This document shows, in pieces, positions 3,290 through 46,810 of a stretch of 46,810 nt of DNA. Each line of letters opens with the position of its first letter. Within the stretch, counting starts at the first letter, position 1. The translations under genes and the position numbers were made by a program. The notes below the pieces were generated by a model. The model was given only the letters and a program-made list of their open reading frames with translations, was not told the origin of the DNA and did not search any database. The DNA is from a virus (Duplodnaviria > Caudoviricetes): positions 1-46,810 of IMG/VR virus record IMGVR_UViG_3300032303_000909. One strand, 5' to 3'.

Positions 3290-3296
3290 AACACGG

Positions 3297-3340
3297 CCCC
3301 ACCCCCTGAAGTTATAAACTCACGGTGGGGTTTTTCTTTT
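3297..3340 (+). terminator. probable intrinsic terminator of the tRNA cluster
   Basis: CCCCACC/GGTGGGG stem followed by TTTTTCTTTT, just after the last tRNA and facing a convergent gene. Confidence 0.6.
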
Positions 3341-3526
3341 AGCGTTATATAATCTATCTTTAATTTCGTTATGGACGATGTAGTCGGTAGTAGCAAGTCG
3401 AGCCAACCATCCAGATAGTAATCCACGCTGATAGATCAACTTTTCTACTTTATCACCTGTGTAACAGAGCTCGAGCAATTCGTCAATCTCTTGTTGAATT
3501 TCTTCTAGGTGAGTTCTTGGTTTCAT
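3320..3526 (-). CDS. hypothetical protein
   Basis: 68-aa ORF with TAAATA motif just upstream on the - strand. Confidence 0.6.
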   Translation of the reverse strand: MKPRTHLEEIQQEIDELLELCYTGDKVEKLIYQRGLLSGWLARLATTDYIVHNEIKDRLYNAKRKTPP

Positions 3527-3542
3527 GCTGTTATTTACTTAC

Positions 3543-3571
3543 TTGACAAAATAGTAAAATAATATTATAAT
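3543..3571 (+). promoter_or_regulatory. sigma70-type promoter
   Basis: TTGACA-N17-TATAAT. Confidence 0.8.
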
Positions 3572-3623
3572 TAAATATAATGTAATTCTTACTATTTGTA
3601 GTTGTCACACTATATGTTAAACA

Positions 3624-11803: not shown

Positions 11804-12337
11804 ATGCCATGGATTGAAAACGTAGCCGCCGCTGATATACCTACAAGGTTCCATCACGAAGCTGGTGAGAATAGTATGCTGATCAGCATTGTTGATCCAG
11901 CAAGTTGGAGACCAACTCCTGCCCACAAGTTCAAAGAAATTCATAATTTTGAGTTTCTTGATATTGAAGAAAAAGACTTTGCATTGGACGAAGCCATGCG
12001 ATGCAGCCAAGAGCAGGCTAATGAGCTGGTGCGATTGTTGCAACATGCATTGGCCAATAGAATGAACGTTGTTGTTCATTGCTATGCTGGTGTATGTCGC
12101 AGTGGTGCAGTTTGTGAAGTCGGAGTCATGATGGGCTTTGATGACACCGCACGTTTCCGTAGTCCTAATCTGCTGGTCAAACACCGCATGATGAAGGCCT
12201 TGGGTTGGACGTATGATAGTAAAGAATTACCTACTATTAATGGAAAGCCATTGGACAAAGAATGGGTCGATTCAAATGAGCGATGGACTACTCTTGCTCA
12301 GGCAAGACGAGAACATAGATTAAAAGGCAATACCTAA
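11804..12337 (+). CDS. CX5R (PTP/dual-specificity-type) phosphatase
   Basis: VVVHCYAGVCRSGAV; RBS AAGGA. Confidence 0.85.
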   Translation: MPWIENVAAADIPTRFHHEAGENSMLISIVDPASWRPTPAHKFKEIHNFEFLDIEEKDFALDEAMRCSQEQANELVRLLQHALANRMNVVVHCYAGVCRSGAVCEVGVMMGFDDTARFRSPNLLVKHRMMKALGWTYDSKELPTINGKPLDKEWVDSNERWTTLAQARREHRLKGNT

Positions 12338-12344
12338 CTTTTGG

Positions 12345-12373
12345 TTGACTTCTAACTTAATTTGTGTTATAAT
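12345..12373 (+). promoter_or_regulatory. sigma70-type promoter
   Basis: TTGACT-N17-TATAAT with TG extension. Confidence 0.75.
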
Positions 12374-12402
12374 TATTCATTGTTTTATAGAAATAGTGAA
12401 AT

Positions 12403-12867
12403 ATGCCTAAATGTTATCAATTAGTTGGTGTGCCCGGTTCAGGTAAATCTACCTGGGTAGAAGCACAAGATTGGGCATTAACCTGTGCTAGAGTTAGCAC
12501 AGACAAATGGGTTGAAATCTATGCCAAAGAAGTAGGTCGTACCTACACCGAAGTGTTTGCAGATTTCATGCCCACTGCTGTAGATCTTATGGCCAAGGAA
12601 GTTGTTGCGGCTCGAGAACTAAAACGAGATATCATTTGGGACCAAACTAGTACCACTGTTGCTAGTCGTATTCGAAAGTTTAATATGTTGCCCGACTATG
12701 AGCATATTGCTATAGTATTTGAAACTCCACCAAGGCTTGAATTAAAACGTCGATTGGCCGGCAGACCGGGCAAAGAAATTCCAGATGCTGTAATAGAAGG
12801 AATGTTGGCTAGTTTTGAAATGCCTACAGAGGAAGAGGGTTTCAAAGAAATCTGGTTTGCTGTTTAA
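12403..12867 (+). CDS. P-loop kinase (AAA_33, polynucleotide kinase-like)
   Basis: GVPGSGKST, VSTD, IIWDQTS, RRxxR lid as in Pnk kinase domains. Confidence 0.8.
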   Translation: MPKCYQLVGVPGSGKSTWVEAQDWALTCARVSTDKWVEIYAKEVGRTYTEVFADFMPTAVDLMAKEVVAARELKRDIIWDQTSTTVASRIRKFNMLPDYEHIAIVFETPPRLELKRRLAGRPGKEIPDAVIEGMLASFEMPTEEEGFKEIWFAV

Positions 12868-12893
12868 GTTATATTTTAAGAAAGGAGGGCAAG

Positions 12894-13460
12894 ATGCCAA
12901 GTGTATTTTTAGTCAGTGACACGCACTTTGGTCACACAGGTGTTTGCCGCTTCACATGCAACGACGGTGTTACAAAGTTGCGTCCTTGGACTGATCCCGA
13001 GGAGATGGACGAAGCTATGATTAAGTCCTGGAACGATCGTGTTCGACCCAAAGACAAAGTCTATCACTTAGGTGACGTTGTTATTAACCGCAGGGCATTA
13101 AAGACATTAAGTCGTTTAAACGGCGACAAGGTTTTAATCCGCGGTAACCACGACATCTTTCCAGATGTAGAGTATCGTGAATACTTTAGAGAATTACGTG
13201 CATATCATGTTATGAACGGAATGATTTTAAGCCATATCCCAATTCACGAAGAATCGTTAGGACGTTTCGGTGTTAACATTCACGGTCACCTTCATGCCAA
13301 TCGTGTTATGAAAGACGGTGCAGTTGATCTGCGTTATCATTGTGTCTGCGTAGAACAAACACCCGACTTTGCACCCATCTTGTTTGAAGACGTTATCAAA
13401 CGTATTGAAGCAGAAGGTGGAAGTGTTGGTTTTAAAAACGGCAACGGACCTACAATGTAA
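12894..13460 (+). CDS. calcineurin-like metallophosphoesterase
   Basis: SDTHFGH, HLGDV, RGNHD, LSHIP, HGHLH; RBS AAGGAGG. Confidence 0.92.
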   Translation: MPSVFLVSDTHFGHTGVCRFTCNDGVTKLRPWTDPEEMDEAMIKSWNDRVRPKDKVYHLGDVVINRRALKTLSRLNGDKVLIRGNHDIFPDVEYREYFRELRAYHVMNGMILSHIPIHEESLGRFGVNIHGHLHANRVMKDGAVDLRYHCVCVEQTPDFAPILFEDVIKRIEAEGGSVGFKNGNGPTM

Positions 13461-13461
13461 T

Positions 13462-13575
13462 ATGTCATATATAACCAACAAATACAATTCCATCCGACTG
13501 CCCGTTGAACCGGGTATGCTGGAATGGTTGAGAGAACGTTATCCACACTCTGGATATTATGTTGTAAACACTTGA
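13462..13575 (+). CDS. small hypothetical protein
   Basis: MSYITNKYNSIRLP... 37 aa starting 1 nt after the previous stop. Confidence 0.5.
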   Translation: MSYITNKYNSIRLPVEPGMLEWLRERYPHSGYYVVNT

Positions 13576-13600
13576 CATCTAGCGTAAAGTACGCTATAAT
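13572..13600 (+). promoter_or_regulatory. sigma70-type promoter for DUF2828 locus
   Basis: perfect TTGACA-N17-TATAAT. Confidence 0.85.
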
Positions 13601-13625
13601 TAATGTTGTTAAGATAAGAAGTTTT

Positions 13626-13679
13626 AGGATCGATTCAGCAAACTTTAATACATTTCATAATTGTAAAAAGACGATCCTG
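13626..13679 (+). ncRNA. CAGCA-stem element 1 (5' leader of DUF2828 gene)
   Basis: AGGATCG-ATT-CAGCAA...CGATCCT-G; internal TACA-T-TTCATAA-T-TGTA hairpin. Confidence 0.7.
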
Positions 13680-13703
13680 TCATTTTAACGAAAGGAGAAA
13701 GAG

Positions 13704-15095
13704 ATGACTACATTTGCAGAAGCAGTTAAGTCTACCCCAGCGGTAGCTCGTACCGAAAACGGTATGAAGGCAAAGGCTCATTCGGGCAATGCCCTTGTAG
13801 ACCTGTTCTATAAGATTGGTGCCAGCCGTGGTAAGTCTGTGACCGCAGACTTTGAGCGGGCTTTCCAAGAAGACGCAGACCTTGCAATGAAGATTGCGTT
13901 CTGGTCACGTGACGTCCGTGGTGGCGCAGGTGAACGTCAGCTGTTCCGTGATGTCCTAGTGCATCTGGAAAAGTTGCATCCAGAAACTCTGGAAGCAGTT
14001 CTTCCTTTCGTGAGCGAGTTCGGCCGTTGGGACGACTTGCTGGTATTCAAGACTGAAAAGTTCAAGCACATGGCCTATACCCTAATCGGTGATGCCCTGC
14101 GTGAACGCAACGGTCTGTGTGCCAAGTGGATGCCTCGTCAAGGCCCAATCGCGGTTGAAATCCGTAACTTCTATGGTATGACTCCAAAGTTCTACCGTAA
14201 GAGTTTGGTTGCATTGACCAATGTTGTCGAAAGCAAGATGTGTGCAAAGGACTGGGATTCTATCGAATTCGGTAAGTTGCCATCACTGGCTTCGGCTCGT
14301 TACAACAAGGCATTTGCCAAGAACGCTTCTGCGTCTTACACTGCCTACAAGGCTCGTTTGACTGCAGGTACAGACAAGGTAAACGCTAGTGCGGTTTACC
14401 CATACGATGTCATCAAGACCTTGCGTCATGGTGGCGATAGTGTGGTAGCAGATGCTCAATGGGCTTCTCTGCCAAACTACATTGGCAATGCCAGCGTTAT
14501 GCCTTTGGTTGACGTTAGCGGTTCGATGAGCTGTCCAGTTGGCGGAAACGCTAACCTAATGTGCATCGATATTGCCTTGTCGTTGGGTCTGTACTGTGCT
14601 GATAAGAACACTGGTGTATTCAAGGATACATTCTTGACTTTCAGTGCAAAGCCAAAGGCACAGGTTGTTAAGGGTACACTTGCTCAGAAGATGAGCCAAA
14701 TGAACTCTAGCGACTGGGGCATGAACACTAACCTACATGCGGCGTTTGACGAAATCCTACGCATCGCAGTCAAGGGCGGTGTGAACGCAAGTGACATGCC
14801 AAAGACTTTGCTGATCCTTTCGGACATGCAGTTTGATCAATGCGTAAGTTTTGATGACTCTGCTCACCAAATGATCAAGCGCAAGTACAAGGACGCTGGA
14901 TACGAAGTTCCAAACATCGTATTCTGGAACCTGAACAGCCGGGACAATGTCCCTGTTAAGTTCGACAAGCTCGGTACCGCGTTGGTGTCTGGGTTCAGCC
15001 CAGCAGTTATGAAGGGTATCCTATCGGGTACTGACATGACTCCATATGGTATCATGCTAGCCACTGTTGATGTGGATCGCTACAGCGTTCTATAA
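13704..15095 (+). CDS. DUF2828 family TROVE/Ro60-like protein with C-terminal vWA domain
   Basis: TENG, RDVRGGAGER, GRWDDL, AKWMPR, VYPYDV, MIDAS DVSGSM, TNL, SDMQFD, IVFWNL, VSGFSP; RBS AAGGAG; GC-richer codon usage than neighbours. Confidence 0.85.
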   Translation: MTTFAEAVKSTPAVARTENGMKAKAHSGNALVDLFYKIGASRGKSVTADFERAFQEDADLAMKIAFWSRDVRGGAGERQLFRDVLVHLEKLHPETLEAVLPFVSEFGRWDDLLVFKTEKFKHMAYTLIGDALRERNGLCAKWMPRQGPIAVEIRNFYGMTPKFYRKSLVALTNVVESKMCAKDWDSIEFGKLPSLASARYNKAFAKNASASYTAYKARLTAGTDKVNASAVYPYDVIKTLRHGGDSVVADAQWASLPNYIGNASVMPLVDVSGSMSCPVGGNANLMCIDIALSLGLYCADKNTGVFKDTFLTFSAKPKAQVVKGTLAQKMSQMNSSDWGMNTNLHAAFDEILRIAVKGGVNASDMPKTLLILSDMQFDQCVSFDDSAHQMIKRKYKDAGYEVPNIVFWNLNSRDNVPVKFDKLGTALVSGFSPAVMKGILSGTDMTPYGIMLATVDVDRYSVL

Positions 15096-15106
15096 ATAGT
15101 GTTGTA

Positions 15107-15264
15107 AGGTTAGGTTCAGCAAAATTCAATAACATCGAATTGCTTGTATCTATGTCAATAGCTGGAGCCTGAAAGGGCTTTGAAGGTTACGGACATATAT
15201 GGATATAAGATAGGTGTGTTTCGATATTGACACCGATATAAACTCAAAGTAGACAACTAACCTG
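15107..15264 (+). ncRNA. CAGCA-stem element 2 (~158 nt)
   Basis: AGGTTAG-GTT-CAGCAA...CTAACCT-G; internal helices CTTGTATC/GATATAAG, TATGTC/GACATA, GAGCCT-GAAA-GGGCTT, GGTGT/ACACC. Confidence 0.75.
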
Positions 15265-15272
15265 TTATACAA

Positions 15273-15519
15273 AGGATGACTACAGCAGTATTAAAATACT
15301 AAAGTAATTACCATAGAAAGTGGTCGTAGGACAGTAGCAATACTTCTAGGCAACTAGACGCAGAAGGAATGGATGACGTGGGGAAAGACTCTCTATGTTG
15401 TTAGTAGCAGACACAATTACTAACTAGGCAACGTGAATCGTTGATAGGGTCGCAGTAACTGAACCGGTATACAGGGGATAGGGCGACCAGAAAATAAAAT
15501 AACGGTTACCATCATCCTG
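15273..15519 (+). ncRNA. CAGCA-stem element 3 (~247 nt)
   Basis: AGGATGA-CTA-CAGCAG...TCATCCT-G; GCAA-tetraloop hairpins AGTA-GCAA-TACT and TCTAG-GCAA-CTAGA, plus GTTAGTAG/TTACTAAC, CAACG/CGTTG, GGTCGC/GCGACC. Confidence 0.75.
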
Positions 15520-15521
15520 TT

Positions 15522-15550
15522 AATAGGACTCTTCGGAGTCCTATTTTTTT
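15522..15550 (+). terminator. strong intrinsic terminator
   Basis: AATAGGACTC-TTCG-GAGTCCTATT followed by a T tract. Confidence 0.92.
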
Positions 15551-44000: not shown

Positions 44001-44103
44001 GCTGAGAGATAGTATTGCATCAGATAATTACCTATTTGGCACAGACTGGTGGCAATTTGCTCAGCTACCCACTGATAAAACTGACCCTCTAACTAGAGAA
44101 TAA
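41053..44103 (+). CDS. virion structural protein with putative Ig (He_PIG-like) repeats and a Gly-rich domain
   Basis: Repeated GxLPxGLxLxxxGxIxG motifs; Thr-rich; WGAGGAG...GGGGG block; TAAATA at 41020. Confidence 0.8.
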   Translation: MTSIPSWITTAGFLFTATELVSTATALVASGTNISYTLLSGSLPSGLLLSSTGTIYGTPIAVINTTTNKFVVRATNTSGIADRTFKIDVTGRDNPTWSTAEGFLIVGVNQENYALDNQWIDYQLSATATEAPTGTTISYYIPTNGGKLPPGLSMDRFGRITGYVNDTLTYDSFISDTGGYDDESYDSYTYDHDIVAPLVVSGATTPGIPKIYRFKVVATDGITNSERTFKIMVSSTEILYNNVSAMTVTGVTVTTASIYSLQPMQWLNGTDLGIIRAGNNHQIPVTVYNPAPYVGTVTYSIVTGSSIASNLPEGLLLDTEKGYIYGYVPYQPAYTRSYSITVKASKEGTIYFRPNNPNVLIPQNYTTTTNAINTFTLAIKGEVESTIEWISTNSLGSIELGITSELAVVARQLQTDYSIKYLLVNGTLPSGLTLERDGSLSGQVAYTANTGTYSFTVAASDVYELSTIEKQFTLSVTGTKKNPTTIYKTVTTYSTTSTYHSTGTSTKVVLLTSGTTWSVPADFTRINSVEIWGAGGAGSAYQGHTGGGGGGYAKITNLLITTSTIRYSINSSTTIFGSISTSSPYIISATSGKSGSNGGDGGVGLIGASTASWTSSTTATIFYGGDGGISNPDVYGGGGVGGGSSGGPASNGNNGDNIYGLGGENVNSLGRGVGGYGGRHAFYTSTTTNNDINGCIFGGGGGAGGIGQGAHYYGLGGQGAIVITYTYTGTQTTSLITTTSSVAIGTVTYTDNTFTKIYAKPFFTQQNRDRYRDFISNLFTFDPKLIYRYFDTNFGVQHDIKLMLEFGIEQINLDDYMPALRENFYRKKFYFGNIKKAVAADNAGTVIYEVIYVDIIDELTNNSGVSVNQSVENGADVYYPSSLENMRKQLEVIQLQNGEAIKVNEYNEPKFMRTPQNGDYRPPGYIRAVPLCYALPGQGDKIISRIKLSGFDFKLLDFEVDRLIVQETADSSTAKYLLLERQSLRDSIASDNYLFGTDWWQFAQLPTDKTDPLTRE

Positions 44104-44106
44104 CAC

Positions 44107-44511
44107 ATGACCACTATTAACAAATTACCTCAATTAAGCAGTACAGCCACTGATGTGCTAATTCCCGTAGTTGATCGTGCTGACAACAGGACTAAACAAA
44201 TGGCACTGTCACAGCTAACTACCCTAGCAAAAGGTGATACAGGTCCTAGTGGTCCTAGAGGATTAGACGGTATTACAGGACTCAGTGGTCCGCAAGGCCC
44301 ATCAGGTGCAGCCAGTACAGTAAGTGGTCCACAAGGCCCGTCAGGACCATCTGGTCCATCTGTTGTTGCAAATAGCGGCACCGTAGCACATTCAACTAGT
44401 ACCGGAATTGCGGGATCAATGTTATATAACACTAATTACCTGTATGTTTGTGTAGCAACAAACACCTGGATTAGATTAGGAAATACTGCAACAAATATCA
44501 CAATTTGGTAA
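44107..44511 (+). CDS. short collagen-repeat fibre protein
   Basis: G-X-Y repeats and YLYVCVATNTWIR C-terminus. Confidence 0.8.
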   Translation: MTTINKLPQLSSTATDVLIPVVDRADNRTKQMALSQLTTLAKGDTGPSGPRGLDGITGLSGPQGPSGAASTVSGPQGPSGPSGPSVVANSGTVAHSTSTGIAGSMLYNTNYLYVCVATNTWIRLGNTATNITIW

Positions 44512-44569
44512 TTCACTACTTTTTAATTTAATAAATACACTATTGCATATATGATAGGTACCTATACAA

Positions 44570-46810
44570 ATGACCACTAACAGATCACCGCTGCCGCAGG
44601 TTTTAGACACTAATTTAACCACTCCTACGCTTGGCGAAACCAAGTTTATCGTAGCAGATTCATCTGTAGAACAATACTTAACAGCAGAACAGGCAGCTGA
44701 GTTATTACAAATTCGAGGTGACCCGGGCCCACAAGGACCTCAGGGACCTCAGGGAGCAAGCGGACCACAGGGACCGAGCGGCGTACAGGGGCCACAAGGT
44801 GTTCAAGGGCCAAGTGGACCATCGGGCCCAAGTGGACCACAAGGACCGCAAGGACCGCAAGGACCACAAGGACCATCAGGCCCAAGTGGACCGCAAGGCA
44901 ATGTTGGTCAACCAGGAAATCAAGGTCCACAAGGTCCAAGTGGTCCAAGTGGTCCTCAGGGCGCACGTGGTAATCAAGGACCACAAGGCCCTGTATCCTC
45001 TACACTTACAAATATAGTAGGCGGTGCCGTAGGTAGCATCCCTTATCAAACAGCCCCTAGTACAACTGGATTTATTCCTATTGGTGCAGCTGGGTTTCTA
45101 TTACAAAGCAACGGAACTACTGCAACTTGGGTCAGCACATCTACAATTGTTCCGGATAATGCAGGTCAAGCAAACAAAATTTTAATTAACAACTTTAACA
45201 ATACCAGTACAATTTATTATCCCATGTTGGCTGCTGGTCCGGGTTCGTATCTAACTCCCGGTGTTGACAGCGATTTAAATTATCTAGCCAGTACAGGCGC
45301 ACTATCTACACCGGTAGTACTTGTTACTACAACAACCAATGCTGTTTCTACAACAACAGGTGCCGCTGTGGTCTCGGGGGGTTTGGGTGTTGCAAAAGAC
45401 ATTTATTTCGGCGGCAAACTATATCAAAATGGTGTAGAATTTACAGGTGGTGGGCCACAAGGGCCGCAGGGCGTTCAAGGACCAAGTGGACCATCAGGAC
45501 CAAGAGGTGTTCAGGGCCCGCAGGGAGTTCAGGGCCCGCAGGGACCAAGTGGACCAAGTGGACCATCGGGACCTCAGGGGCCGCAAGGACCTCAAGGACC
45601 TCAAGGACCAAGTGGACCACAGGGTAATCAAGGAGCCTCATTAATAGTTAAAGGCAGTGTTCCGTTTGTTAGTAGTTTAAATTCAATCATTAATCCGCAG
45701 ATCAATGACGGTTATGTTGTAACCGGAGGCGGCACAGCAGGACATTTATATGTTTATGATGGTAATGGTTGGACAGACGTTGGGCAATTTGTAGGTGATC
45801 GAGGACCACAGGGGCCGAGTGGACCGAGCGGGGTACAAGGACCCCAAGGACCGCAGGGACCCCAAGGACCGCAGGGGCCAAGTGGACCGCAGGGCAGTAA
45901 AGGTGATCCCGGCGTTGATAGCAATATGTCAGGTCCAAGCGGGCCACAAGGGCCACAAGGTCCGCAAGGTGTCCAGGGACCCCAAGGAAATCAGGGCCCA
46001 CAAGGCCCACAAGGCCCACAGGGGCCGCAAGGCGCAATGGGTCAGTTTGTTACATTAAGAGGCCATGTCAATGCACAGGCTGAACTTACGGGTATTTTAG
46101 GTGCAGTAGTAGGCGATGCGTACATTGTAGATACTGGTCCAAAAGCAACACATTTATTCATATATGACGGAAGTGGATGGCAAGACGGTGGAGCAATTGC
46201 TGGTCCAAGCGGACCACAAGGGCCGCAGGGACCAAGTGGGGCACAAGGACCGCAAGGACCGCAAGGACCAAGTGGAGTACCAAGTAATACATCAGGACCT
46301 CAAGGACCGCAAGGTGTTCAAGGACCAAGTGGACCACAAGGACCTCAAGGTCCATCGGGAACCCCGAGTAATGCAGTAGGTCCTCAAGGACCTCAAGGAC
46401 CCCAAGGATCTCAAGGACCAAGTGGACCAAGTGGACCGCAAGGACCTACAAATAACACACCAAGTAATGTATCAGGACCACAAGGACCTCAAGGACCAAG
46501 TGGACCAAGTGGACCCCAGGGACCTGTAAGTAATACAGCAGGGCCACCGGGACCTCAAGGTCCTGCTGGGCCACCAAGCAATGTTGTTGGACCTACGGGC
46601 AATCAAGGACCGCAAGGACCGCAAGGACCACAAGGACCAGCAAGTAATACTGCAGGACCACCAGGGCCACCAGGGCCGAGCGGCCCCGGAAGTAATACAT
46701 CAGGACCGCAAGGACCGCAAGGACCTCAAGGACCAGGCGGACCACCCGGTGCACCAAGTAATGTTGCAGGGCCACCAAGTAATGTTGCAGGACCTCCAGG
46801 ACCTCCAGGA
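44570..46810 (+). CDS. long collagen-like tail fibre protein (truncated by window end)
   Basis: ATG 44570 [10 protein letters not shown]... stays open to the window end; extensive GPQ/GPS triplets separated by small globular domains; absent from ORF track because there is no stop. Confidence 0.88.
44716..46810 (+). repeat. coding 9-bp-period collagen repeats (GGNCCNCAR / GGNCCNAGT)
   Basis: Blocks at about 44716-44995, 45452-45635, 45795-46040 and 46200-46810. Confidence 0.9.

Follow-up and report, generated by a model that had tools for sequence, protein, structure and literature searches.

Element 1, a putative 55-nt RNA element located 24 nt upstream of a gene with a predicted Ro60 fold and on the same strand of a large phage's genome, belongs to a family of handle-bearing elements whose short members carry tRNA-like anticodon loops far more often than their shuffled counterparts. 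By analogy with known Ro60 systems, element 1 is very probably a partner RNA of the Ro-like protein, and its CAU loop has probably been selected as an anticodon look-alike. We regard the chances as evenly balanced that bait is the purpose of this look-alike, and likewise for the combined reading, in which element 1 would be a small Y-RNA-like partner of a Ro60-like protein, with a selected Ile/Met-type look-alike serving as bait for tRNA-attacking enzymes. A role of the leader in feedback on Ro-like protein synthesis is slightly favored.

The predicted transcription unit and its surroundings

The window, i.e. the whole 46,810-nt stretch of DNA that was analyzed, is the entire IMG/VR record IMGVR_UViG_3300032303_000909, a linear virus record estimated by CheckV to be ~13% complete. 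It contains 8 tRNA genes and many auxiliary enzyme genes. The features surrounding element 1 are as follows.

11804..13460, + strand: upstream genes for dual-specificity phosphatase-like, kinase-like AAA_33 and metallophosphoesterase proteins, a putative RNA end-healing-like set
13572..13600, + strand: predicted sigma-70-type promoter matching 12/12 consensus positions (TTGACA, 17 nt, TATAAT)
13626..13632, + strand: 5' strand of the handle stem (7 bp), 100% paired in 14 clade members
13636..13641, + strand: CAGCAA, a conserved unpaired motif and putative protein-binding signature
13649..13665, + strand: anticodon-arm look-alike with 4 bp, U·U, a 7-nt loop and CAU at the anticodon position
13672..13680, + strand: 3' strand of the handle stem (13672-13678) and the CUGU end of the family
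13679..13708, + strand: predicted start-codon hairpin in which 13679-13686 pairs with 13701-13708, covering the ATG
13704..15095, + strand: 463-aa DUF2828/DUF7788 protein with a predicted Ro60 fold (helical ring plus vWA domain with DxSxS)
15107..15265, + strand: element 2, with a handle as in element 1 and a 135-nt structured insert (z -2.9) lacking a T-loop
15273..15520, + strand: element 3, with a handle as in element 1 and a 224-nt multi-hairpin insert (z -2.2)
15522..15545, + strand: intrinsic terminator-like hairpin ending the unit

The predicted promoter places the transcript start near 13607, and close relatives have similar promoters upstream of the element. Judging from this anatomy, the promoter at 13572-13600 would yield one transcript that contains the Ro-like gene and all three elements. 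In RNA data, the word share for the region was <0.2 in each of 24 runs. Contigs from four RNA runs correspond to relatives, and one of these (~93% alike) spans 13663-15304 and continues into the leader of the relative. None of the contigs covers 13507-13607 or extends beyond 15627, and they give no ends, strand, or level.

Elements 2 and 3 are both long handle elements without T-loops. Handle elements of 171-330 nt have conserved words common to different phages (up to 29/52 among the matches listed) and, because the words are shared in this way, look like a separate conserved class of structured RNA. A repeat search of the window missed the handle elements, as the handle alone is common to them, and Rfam at gathering level identified only tRNAs in the whole window, with element 1 covered by no family. 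Two non-coding stretches lie within the tRNA region, at 1290-1510 and 3290-3620, the first of which, ~220 nt long, appears to be structured and was matched by no Rfam family at gathering level. Elsewhere in the window, an RNA polymerase omega/Rpb6-like protein is encoded at 108-338 directly 3' of tRNA-Asn, and long collagen-like Gly-X-Y coding repeats occupy 44100-46810 behind a 1016-aa Ig-domain protein.

Element 1 pairs a stable handle with a weak anticodon-like hairpin

Element 1 owes its stability to the outer 7-bp handle (z -2.3), in which compensatory changes are found at 3/7 pairs among 14 clade members. Nested inside this closing stem (13626-13632/13672-13678) is the hairpin that the earlier note had described as a tRNA-Met-like anticodon stem-loop, and the sequence is as described: TACA (13649-13652) and T13653 precede the loop TTCATAA (13654-13660), which has CAT at its center (13656-13658) and is followed by T13661 and TGTA (13662-13665). 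The near-identity claimed with the tRNA-Met at 2450-2525 of the window is likewise real, as its loop CTCATAA (2479-2485) differs by 1 base. The canonical loop features Y32, U33, and R37 are all present at 13654-13660, with a 7-nt loop requiring U·U at 31-39. In place of the five pairs of an anticodon stem, there are 4 pairs (three A-U and one C-G) plus the U·U. ViennaRNA offers an alternative drawing with a 9-nt loop on 4 bp, and both drawings have energies of ~0 kcal/mol (+0.1 and +0.2), which agrees with the original description of the stem as weak and AT-rich.

The possibility of a chance hairpin, also raised at the outset, applies to the single element, but not to the family. When the 31-nt inner part was dinucleotide-shuffled 20,000 times, a canonical-loop hairpin arose in 3.8% of trials and a CAU-loop hairpin in 0.12%, and the two strands of the window contain 53 such hairpins, 2 with CAU. 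Taken singly, the inner hairpin is only modestly above chance, whereas chance is excluded as the source of anticodon-like loops at the family level, as described below. It is nevertheless conceivable that the family is real, but that the loop of element 1 is a decayed or chance A-U hairpin and the handle alone matters. The 3.8% shuffle rate, the energy of ~0 kcal/mol, and the existence of relatives without a clear loop are all consistent with this account. We consider it very unlikely, since CAU stays centered on changing stems in 9/17 distinct leaders of the window's clade (by eye), others having perfect Thr or Lys arms, and stays centered in other clades as well.

The downstream gene encodes a predicted Ro60-like protein

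The DUF2828 protein encoded downstream of element 1 is predicted from structural modeling to be a Ro60 ring closed by a vWA domain. The earlier note had named DUF2828 without connecting it to Ro60. Pfam identified only DUF2828 and DUF7788 in the 463-aa sequence and no TROVE domain, and the protein is assigned to PHROG 850 ('RNA-binding protein'). A structure model built from 53 sequences (pLDDT 80.5, pTM 0.73) was used for Foldseek, in which ranks 1-13 were all Ro60, with the Ro60 of Thermus phage phiLo as the best match (E 2.5e-9, TM 0.57). A VIA comparison to 1yvp yielded Z 18.0 over 403 residues with an rmsd of 4.1; the Ro60 matches had Z scores of 18.0, 16.2, and 13.8, and the next unrelated fold 10.9. 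The MIDAS DxSxS residues of the vWA domain (D270, S272, and S274) are invariant in the 53 sequences. The primary sequence is only 12-17% identical to solved Ro60s. Signals from database searches were low: a PDB search with the single protein gave nothing meaningful, a PDB profile search reached only phiLo Ro60 (9KOP) at E 0.079, and an Atlas search returned DUF2828 clusters only. Relatives are present in 711/50,697 cultured-phage records, including mycobacteriophage proteins annotated as 'Ro-like' and gp130 of Bas63, which is 39% identical over 463 aa.

Element 1 belongs to a handle family found among tRNA genes

The family was traced from 75 viral loci that encode a related protein; 70 of them had upstream DNA, which was examined. 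Most leaders among these 70 protein-selected loci have the same handle as element 1, and it was here that CAGCAA was first seen, unprompted, before the motif became part of later search patterns. Four pattern scans, constrained solely at the handle ends and in the motif and never in the loop, identified at least 760 elements, at least 513 of them distinct, with at least 352 distinct inner parts of ≤50 nt. Among the matches listed for the least constrained scan, stem length was bimodal, with ≥7 pairs at 65/130 loci, ≤5 pairs at 65/130, and 6 pairs at none. Same-strand tRNAs accompanied 55/65 of the long-stem loci vs 2/65 of the short-stem loci among the matches listed. Similarly, 159/358 listed short elements lie ≤20 nt from a tRNA gene, while none of the 358 listed is beside an opposite-strand tRNA. 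A Ro-like gene was present in 26/45 records with true elements vs 0/44 with chance matches and, for complete records, in 7/7 with true elements vs 0/10 controls, both among the matches listed. For the former test, 47/65 true loci were entered, loci whose flank contained the gene being left out along with most of the duplicates, and 47 control records were entered, of which 44 were counted. Because most copies are found among tRNA genes, we favor the view that the family consists of Y-RNA-like partners whose handle is not of the YrlA type.

Handle elements also occur in the cultured phages KVP40 and S13 and in Felixounaviruses. A relaxed finder placed handle elements before the DUF2828 gene in Clostridia-type genomes too, but it was noisy (sense matches in 51 and antisense matches in 30 of 80 bacterial loci), so only clear bacterial cases were used. 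Classified by position, the 363 distinct short elements among the matches listed comprise 118 leaders of Ro-like genes, 36 leaders of other ORFs, 197 elements with no ORF, and 12 unclassed elements. Among the matches listed, T-loops are found in 0/360 short elements, including element 1, and in 41/69 siblings of 70-120 nt, which often have a permuted T-arm/D-arm body (T-then-D order in 21/69 of those listed). A literature search of open papers retrieved no description of the handle family or of anticodon-arm display, with subscription papers and preprint supplements outside its scope.

Several individual loci deserve mention. Handle elements whose tRNA body is permuted, with a T arm, an acceptor-like stem, and a D arm, are located at L046 2860-2979, L038 769-882, L114 2096-2210, and L591 7946-8289, and tRNA annotations of Cronobacter phage S13 overlap two handle elements with such a body. 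The bacterial-bin records L641 (gene end +70 to +300), L642, L691, and L693 contain handle elements with arms of the Arg(UCU), Lys(CUU), or Lys(UUU) type, a T arm coming next in some of them, and a permuted tmRNA is near the L641 element. YrlA-like matches of 44-56 bits are found upstream of Clostridia-type DUF2828 genes (L660 2188-2287, L664 3551-3651, and L665 3415-3514). One recurrent short class (L149, L112, L053, and similar loci) has, in place of an anticodon arm, a GCTAG stem with an internal hairpin, and another has UUGG-type loops.

Many short elements of the family carry loops like those of real anticodon arms

The expectation that loops of homologous elements would be enriched for YU-NNN-RA with varied anticodons was borne out. 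Among the matches listed, a stem of ≥4 pairs closes a Y-U-NNN-R-A loop in 121/352 distinct short elements vs 8.4±2.9 (maximum 20) in 300 dinucleotide shuffles, which together with a reverse-complement control served as the null. Restricting the listed matches to stems of ≥5 bp gave 97/352 vs 2.8±1.6 shuffled, and elements mismatched at 31-39, as element 1 is, numbered 23 vs 4.6±2.2. The corresponding numbers for reverse complements were 7 (≥4 bp), 5 (≥5 bp), and 11 (31-39 mismatch class) among the matches listed. Moreover, 108/352 listed elements have a loop identical to that of at least 3 real phage tRNAs vs 1.9±1.4 shuffled, using as reference the 924 tRNAs listed from loci holding the elements. 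After clustering at 80/70/60% identity, the weighted counts of real loops were still 47.2/26.9/12.1 vs 1.1/0.7/0.3 shuffled among the matches listed, with 26.9 being out of 135 listed clusters. Likewise among the matches listed, A34 occurs in 2/50 distinct arms vs 30% in shuffles, and stop anticodons in 0/50 vs 11%. The inner stems of short elements also covary. From these homologues enriched for loops with varied real anticodons, we conclude that anticodon mimicry, and with it the decoy role suggested by the earlier note, is credible.

The 143 canonical arms among the matches listed have the anticodons UGU (37), UUU (33), GUA (9), UCU (8), GGA (7), GCU (7), and CAU (6) at the top, and 209/352 listed short elements have no canonical arm. 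In close relatives (protein identity of ~90% or more), a perfect Thr(UGU) or Lys(UUU) arm can take the place of the arm. The stems of mimics match those of real tRNAs with the same anticodon in 4/35 listed cases, chance being 3.3. We also considered whether the mimics retain a nuclease-sensitive A31-U39 that phage tRNAs lose. The case was weak: this pair was found in 7/7 vs 9/23 distinct Lys arms (p 0.007) and in 4/9 vs 6/28 distinct Thr arms (p 0.21) of mimics and phage tRNAs, respectively, and mimics often have A31 whatever their anticodon. A second candidate, that mimics plug gaps in the phage tRNA set, was rejected, since for 12/15 mimics a tRNA close by has that anticodon already. Separately, 20 distinct phage tRNA-Thr genes among the matches listed for loci L001-L624 have U·U at 31-39, a possible signature of nuclease evasion.

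The leader slot of Ro-like genes favors a CAU loop

Among the matches listed, CAU is centered in 31/118 leaders of Ro-like genes vs 1.0±1.1 shuffled, compared with 2/36 leaders of other ORFs (0.3 in shuffles) and 4/197 elements with no ORF (1.6 in shuffles). The broader N-A-U-A pattern is centered in 45/118 listed Ro-gene leaders vs 2.2±1.4 shuffled. In 53 N-A-U-A loops among the matches listed, position 34 is C in 31, U in 11, G in 6, and A in 5, and position 33 is G in 17. Given this pattern with a variable position 34 and frequent G33, the leader slot appears to display an Ile/Met-box arm that is looser than a true tRNA loop. CAU leaders occur in 7/34, 4/16, and 3/10 N-terminal clusters among the matches listed, the last from 65% clustering; hence, descent explains part of the link between CAU and the leader slot, and shared ancestry in a small number of clades may underlie it. 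Several of the weak A-U leader stems also have alternative registers.

The arm of the initiator tRNA, a VapC target, has G-C-rich pairs adjoining the loop, a feature absent from the element 1 stem. Together with the A-U-rich stem and the frequent G33 of N-A-U-A leader loops, comparison with 63 phage CAU tRNAs among the matches listed (U·U at 31-39 in 0, loop CTCATAA in 42, and TTCATAA in 2) weakens the original idea of an initiator or VapC-type mimic.

A CAU loop confined to leaders could also have nothing to do with tRNA, and instead pair with the AUG of the downstream gene to block initiation. This would account for the enrichment of CAU (or wobbling UAU) in the leader slot only, among the matches listed, and for the loosely kept register and U33. 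However, the pairing does not extend beyond the triplet (base 37 with -1 in 6/39, and base 32 with +5 in 5/39), GAU/AAU variants (11/53 among the matches listed) cannot read AUG, and in the window's clade the AUG has a better partner at 13679-13686. We therefore consider loop-AUG pairing highly improbable.

A predicted start-codon hairpin adjoins the handle

The SD (AGGAG, 13693-13697) lies 14 nt 3' of element 1 in the loop of the predicted start-codon hairpin, whose first base is the G of the CUGU end. In 14 clade members, this hairpin is 99% paired, with one-sided changes only. Across 41 leaders with long spacers, pairing between the nine bases 3' of the handle and the start region of the same leader reaches -5.1 kcal/mol vs -3.1±0.3 permuted, and own-start pairing was beaten in 0/5000 permutations; the covariation follows the second codon and rests on about five start types. 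In the 37 leaders with short spacers there is no start-hairpin covariation, and the SD lies near the handle. With either spacer layout, translation could be set by a bound ring or by taking the RNA away. As this second hairpin covaries with the start codon, our results suggest that the leader copy also gates translation, more likely via Ro binding than via a cut. Feedback is proposed because element 1 is an mRNA leader with its 3' end tied into the start-codon hairpin. Production of the Ro-like protein would thus be adjusted when Ro binds the RNA or when processing frees it.

The earlier note had proposed, besides a decoy, a cis-acting cleavage sensor, with a host anticodon nuclease cutting the CAU loop, the handle or protein being freed, and translation of the Ro-like gene increasing. 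Some observations are in line with this. A short element is directly 5' of a Ro-like gene in at least 118 distinct cases, CAU loops are specific to that slot among the matches listed, and the start-codon hairpin adjoins the handle. The Salmonella rsr operon responds to tRNA damage as well, though by another route (PMC7790460). In the 14 clade members, predicted AUG access rises from 0.20 intact to 0.33 when cut and to 0.43-0.52 with the element removed (0.46, 0.59, and 0.56-0.62, respectively, for the window itself). The covarying hairpin and this small gain within the clade are what stands of the cis derepression claim. No gain is evident across 31 leaders, in which mean SD+AUG access is 0.52 intact, 0.53 after an in silico loop cut (up in 4 and down in 3), and 0.63 without the element, so a general cis switch by base pairing was given no support and the sensor is the weaker of the two roles first suggested. 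Even in the clade, AUG access on cutting fell in 3/14 members and barely moved in 2/14, and the in silico cut presumes that the halves separate, whereas a 7-bp handle would hold them together. Leader loops are also often without U33. Furthermore, a sensor cannot be the family-wide role, because most members head no gene: 197/363 short copies among the matches listed have no ORF behind them, and most copies of the family are located among tRNA genes. Overall, we consider a cleavage sensor quite unlikely.

Possible functions of the displayed arms

Cleaving tRNAs is a frequent means of defense against phages, and the responses known so far are resistant tRNAs and repair enzymes. In our preferred reading, the Ro-like ring would grip the handle by its 7-bp stem, CAGCA bulge, and CUGU end, as suggested by the Ro60/Y RNA analogy and the strict co-occurrence of gene and element. 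The variable middle would then face outward, as an anticodon arm in short members and often as a permuted T-arm/D-arm body in 70-120-nt members, and the displayed arms could soak up or distract anticodon nucleases during infection. If true, RNAs that present the arm alone, on a handle bound by protein, would add a third response to tRNA cleavage. Bait is favored because the top anticodons are prime targets of AriB and P2-OLD, relatives swap arms, and gp130 counters a defense. AriB from PARIS chiefly targets Thr(UGU) and Lys(UUU) (PMC12409363) and P2-OLD chiefly targets UGU (PMC12445682). Hughes et al. make the general suggestion that YrlA might competitively inhibit an anticodon nuclease (PMC7790460). 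A bare arm may nonetheless be a poor bait, since AriB was reported not to cut tRNA-Met(CAU) in vitro and to require a D-loop base for full cleavage (PMC12409363).

The arm could alternatively serve in recruitment. The RNA would then link the Ro-like ring to a host partner able to read anticodon arms (the ribosome, a synthetase, a repair ligase, or a modifying enzyme, for instance of the lysidine or t6A machinery), much as a Deinococcus Y RNA joins Rsr and PNPase. The arms are mostly NNU (27/49 vs 17% in shuffles) or NNA (18/49) among the matches listed, and these anticodon classes carry A37 modifications. The end-healing-like genes upstream would fit a recruiting role, as would the alternation of CAU and UAU in leader loops, which is expected of an AUA-reading Ile arm. 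Tethering is also a demonstrated role of Y RNAs (PMC4201824; PMC12135203). Conversely, fast anticodon swapping among close relatives suits an arms race better than a fixed partner, and the top anticodons are known defense targets, so we consider a recruiting arm unlikely.

Candidate RNA partners can now be named for a Ro60-like protein family present in 711 cultured-phage records, and since one family protein is already reported as anti-defense in an E. coli phage, the idea is directly testable in laboratory strains. The start-codon hairpin would also provide a concrete feedback mechanism for the Ro gene. A wider proposal, which we put forward only tentatively and hold to be rather doubtful, is that large phages and some bacteria share a Ro60-fold platform with swappable anticodon-arm baits, that the CAU leader is a Ro-level switch, and that this RNP family is the origin of the amoebal Class I RNAs.

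Comparison with known systems

The closest parallel is the YrlA Y RNA (RF02553; Chen et al. 2014, PMC4201824), likewise a small RNA beside a Ro60-fold gene on the same strand, with an end-joining stem, a conserved 5' motif, and a tRNA-like display domain; element 1 lies within the distance of ~4 kb from the Ro60-fold gene used for YrlA, and on the same strand. The differences are considerable, however. The family motif is CAGCA, whereas that of YrlA is GNCGAAN0-1G (PMC4201824), which occurs in 0/513 distinct elements among the matches listed. Element 1 has an anticodon arm, while YrlA lacks one and has the handle in its place, and the permuted T/D tRNA-like domain is absent from element 1 and present in its 70-120-nt siblings. 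RF02553 (gathering 69 bits) gave no match for element 1 up to E 10, and longer siblings scored 26-31 bits against the same cut-off. The copies of the family are also many and dispersed in tRNA arrays, and unlike Rsr/Ro60, its protein is DUF2828/DUF7788, 12-17% identical to solved Ro60s.

Two phage systems resemble the present one. The Ro60 of phiLo with Yrl1/Yrl2 (Hu et al. 2025, PMC12135203; PDB 9KOP, 9L5Y) also combines a phage Ro60 ring with upstream small RNAs, but the phiLo protein is TROVE-type and its RNAs have a CGAA motif; the word anticodon is absent from the main text of that paper. In the Felixounavirus Bas63, gp130 belongs to the same protein family, is upstream of a tRNA array, and is reported to counter the Ppl defense (PhageMaP preprint, PMC11482910), and the authors guess that some tRNA genes near gp130 are Y RNAs. 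We find four handle elements between the Bas63 tRNAs, at L715 16072-16908. In contrast to element 1, none of the four is directly 5' of gp130, and none has a canonical anticodon loop by eye. Nuclease-resistant phage tRNAs acting against PARIS, OLD, VapC, and others (PMC11464382, PMC12445682, PMC10264068) have the same anticodons (Lys UUU, Thr UGU, and Tyr GUA). They are working replacements for cut tRNAs, whereas handle RNAs cannot decode and would be bait.

Outside phages and bacteria, element 1 resembles the Class I RNAs of Dictyostelium (RF01414; Kjellin et al. 2021, PMC7919456), which are ~55-60 nt with a covarying short closing stem, an unpaired CAGCAA adjoining the stem, a CUGU end, and a variable middle. 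In element 1, G13627 pairs with C13677 and CUGU is at 13677-13680, the length being 55 nt. Of the 11-nt Class I motif, C6, C9, A10, and A11 are present and T3 only with a one-base gap, and the motif is one base nearer the stem start than in Class I RNAs. RF01414 aligns to element 1 end to end at 17.5 bits (cut-off 41.5). It also matches 15 elements in 12/20 loci at 20.5-29.4 bits, all below 41.5, the loci having been chosen for CAGCAA. Table S4 of PMC7919456 lists rejected outgroup candidates that include stem-plus-CAGCAA sequences, one at 40 bits with an Arabidopsis-type label. Class I RNAs are reported to be unique to dictyostelids, with the RRM protein Rnp1A as the reported direct binder (PMC7919456), and the likeness described here would supply a testable partner for this RNA class.
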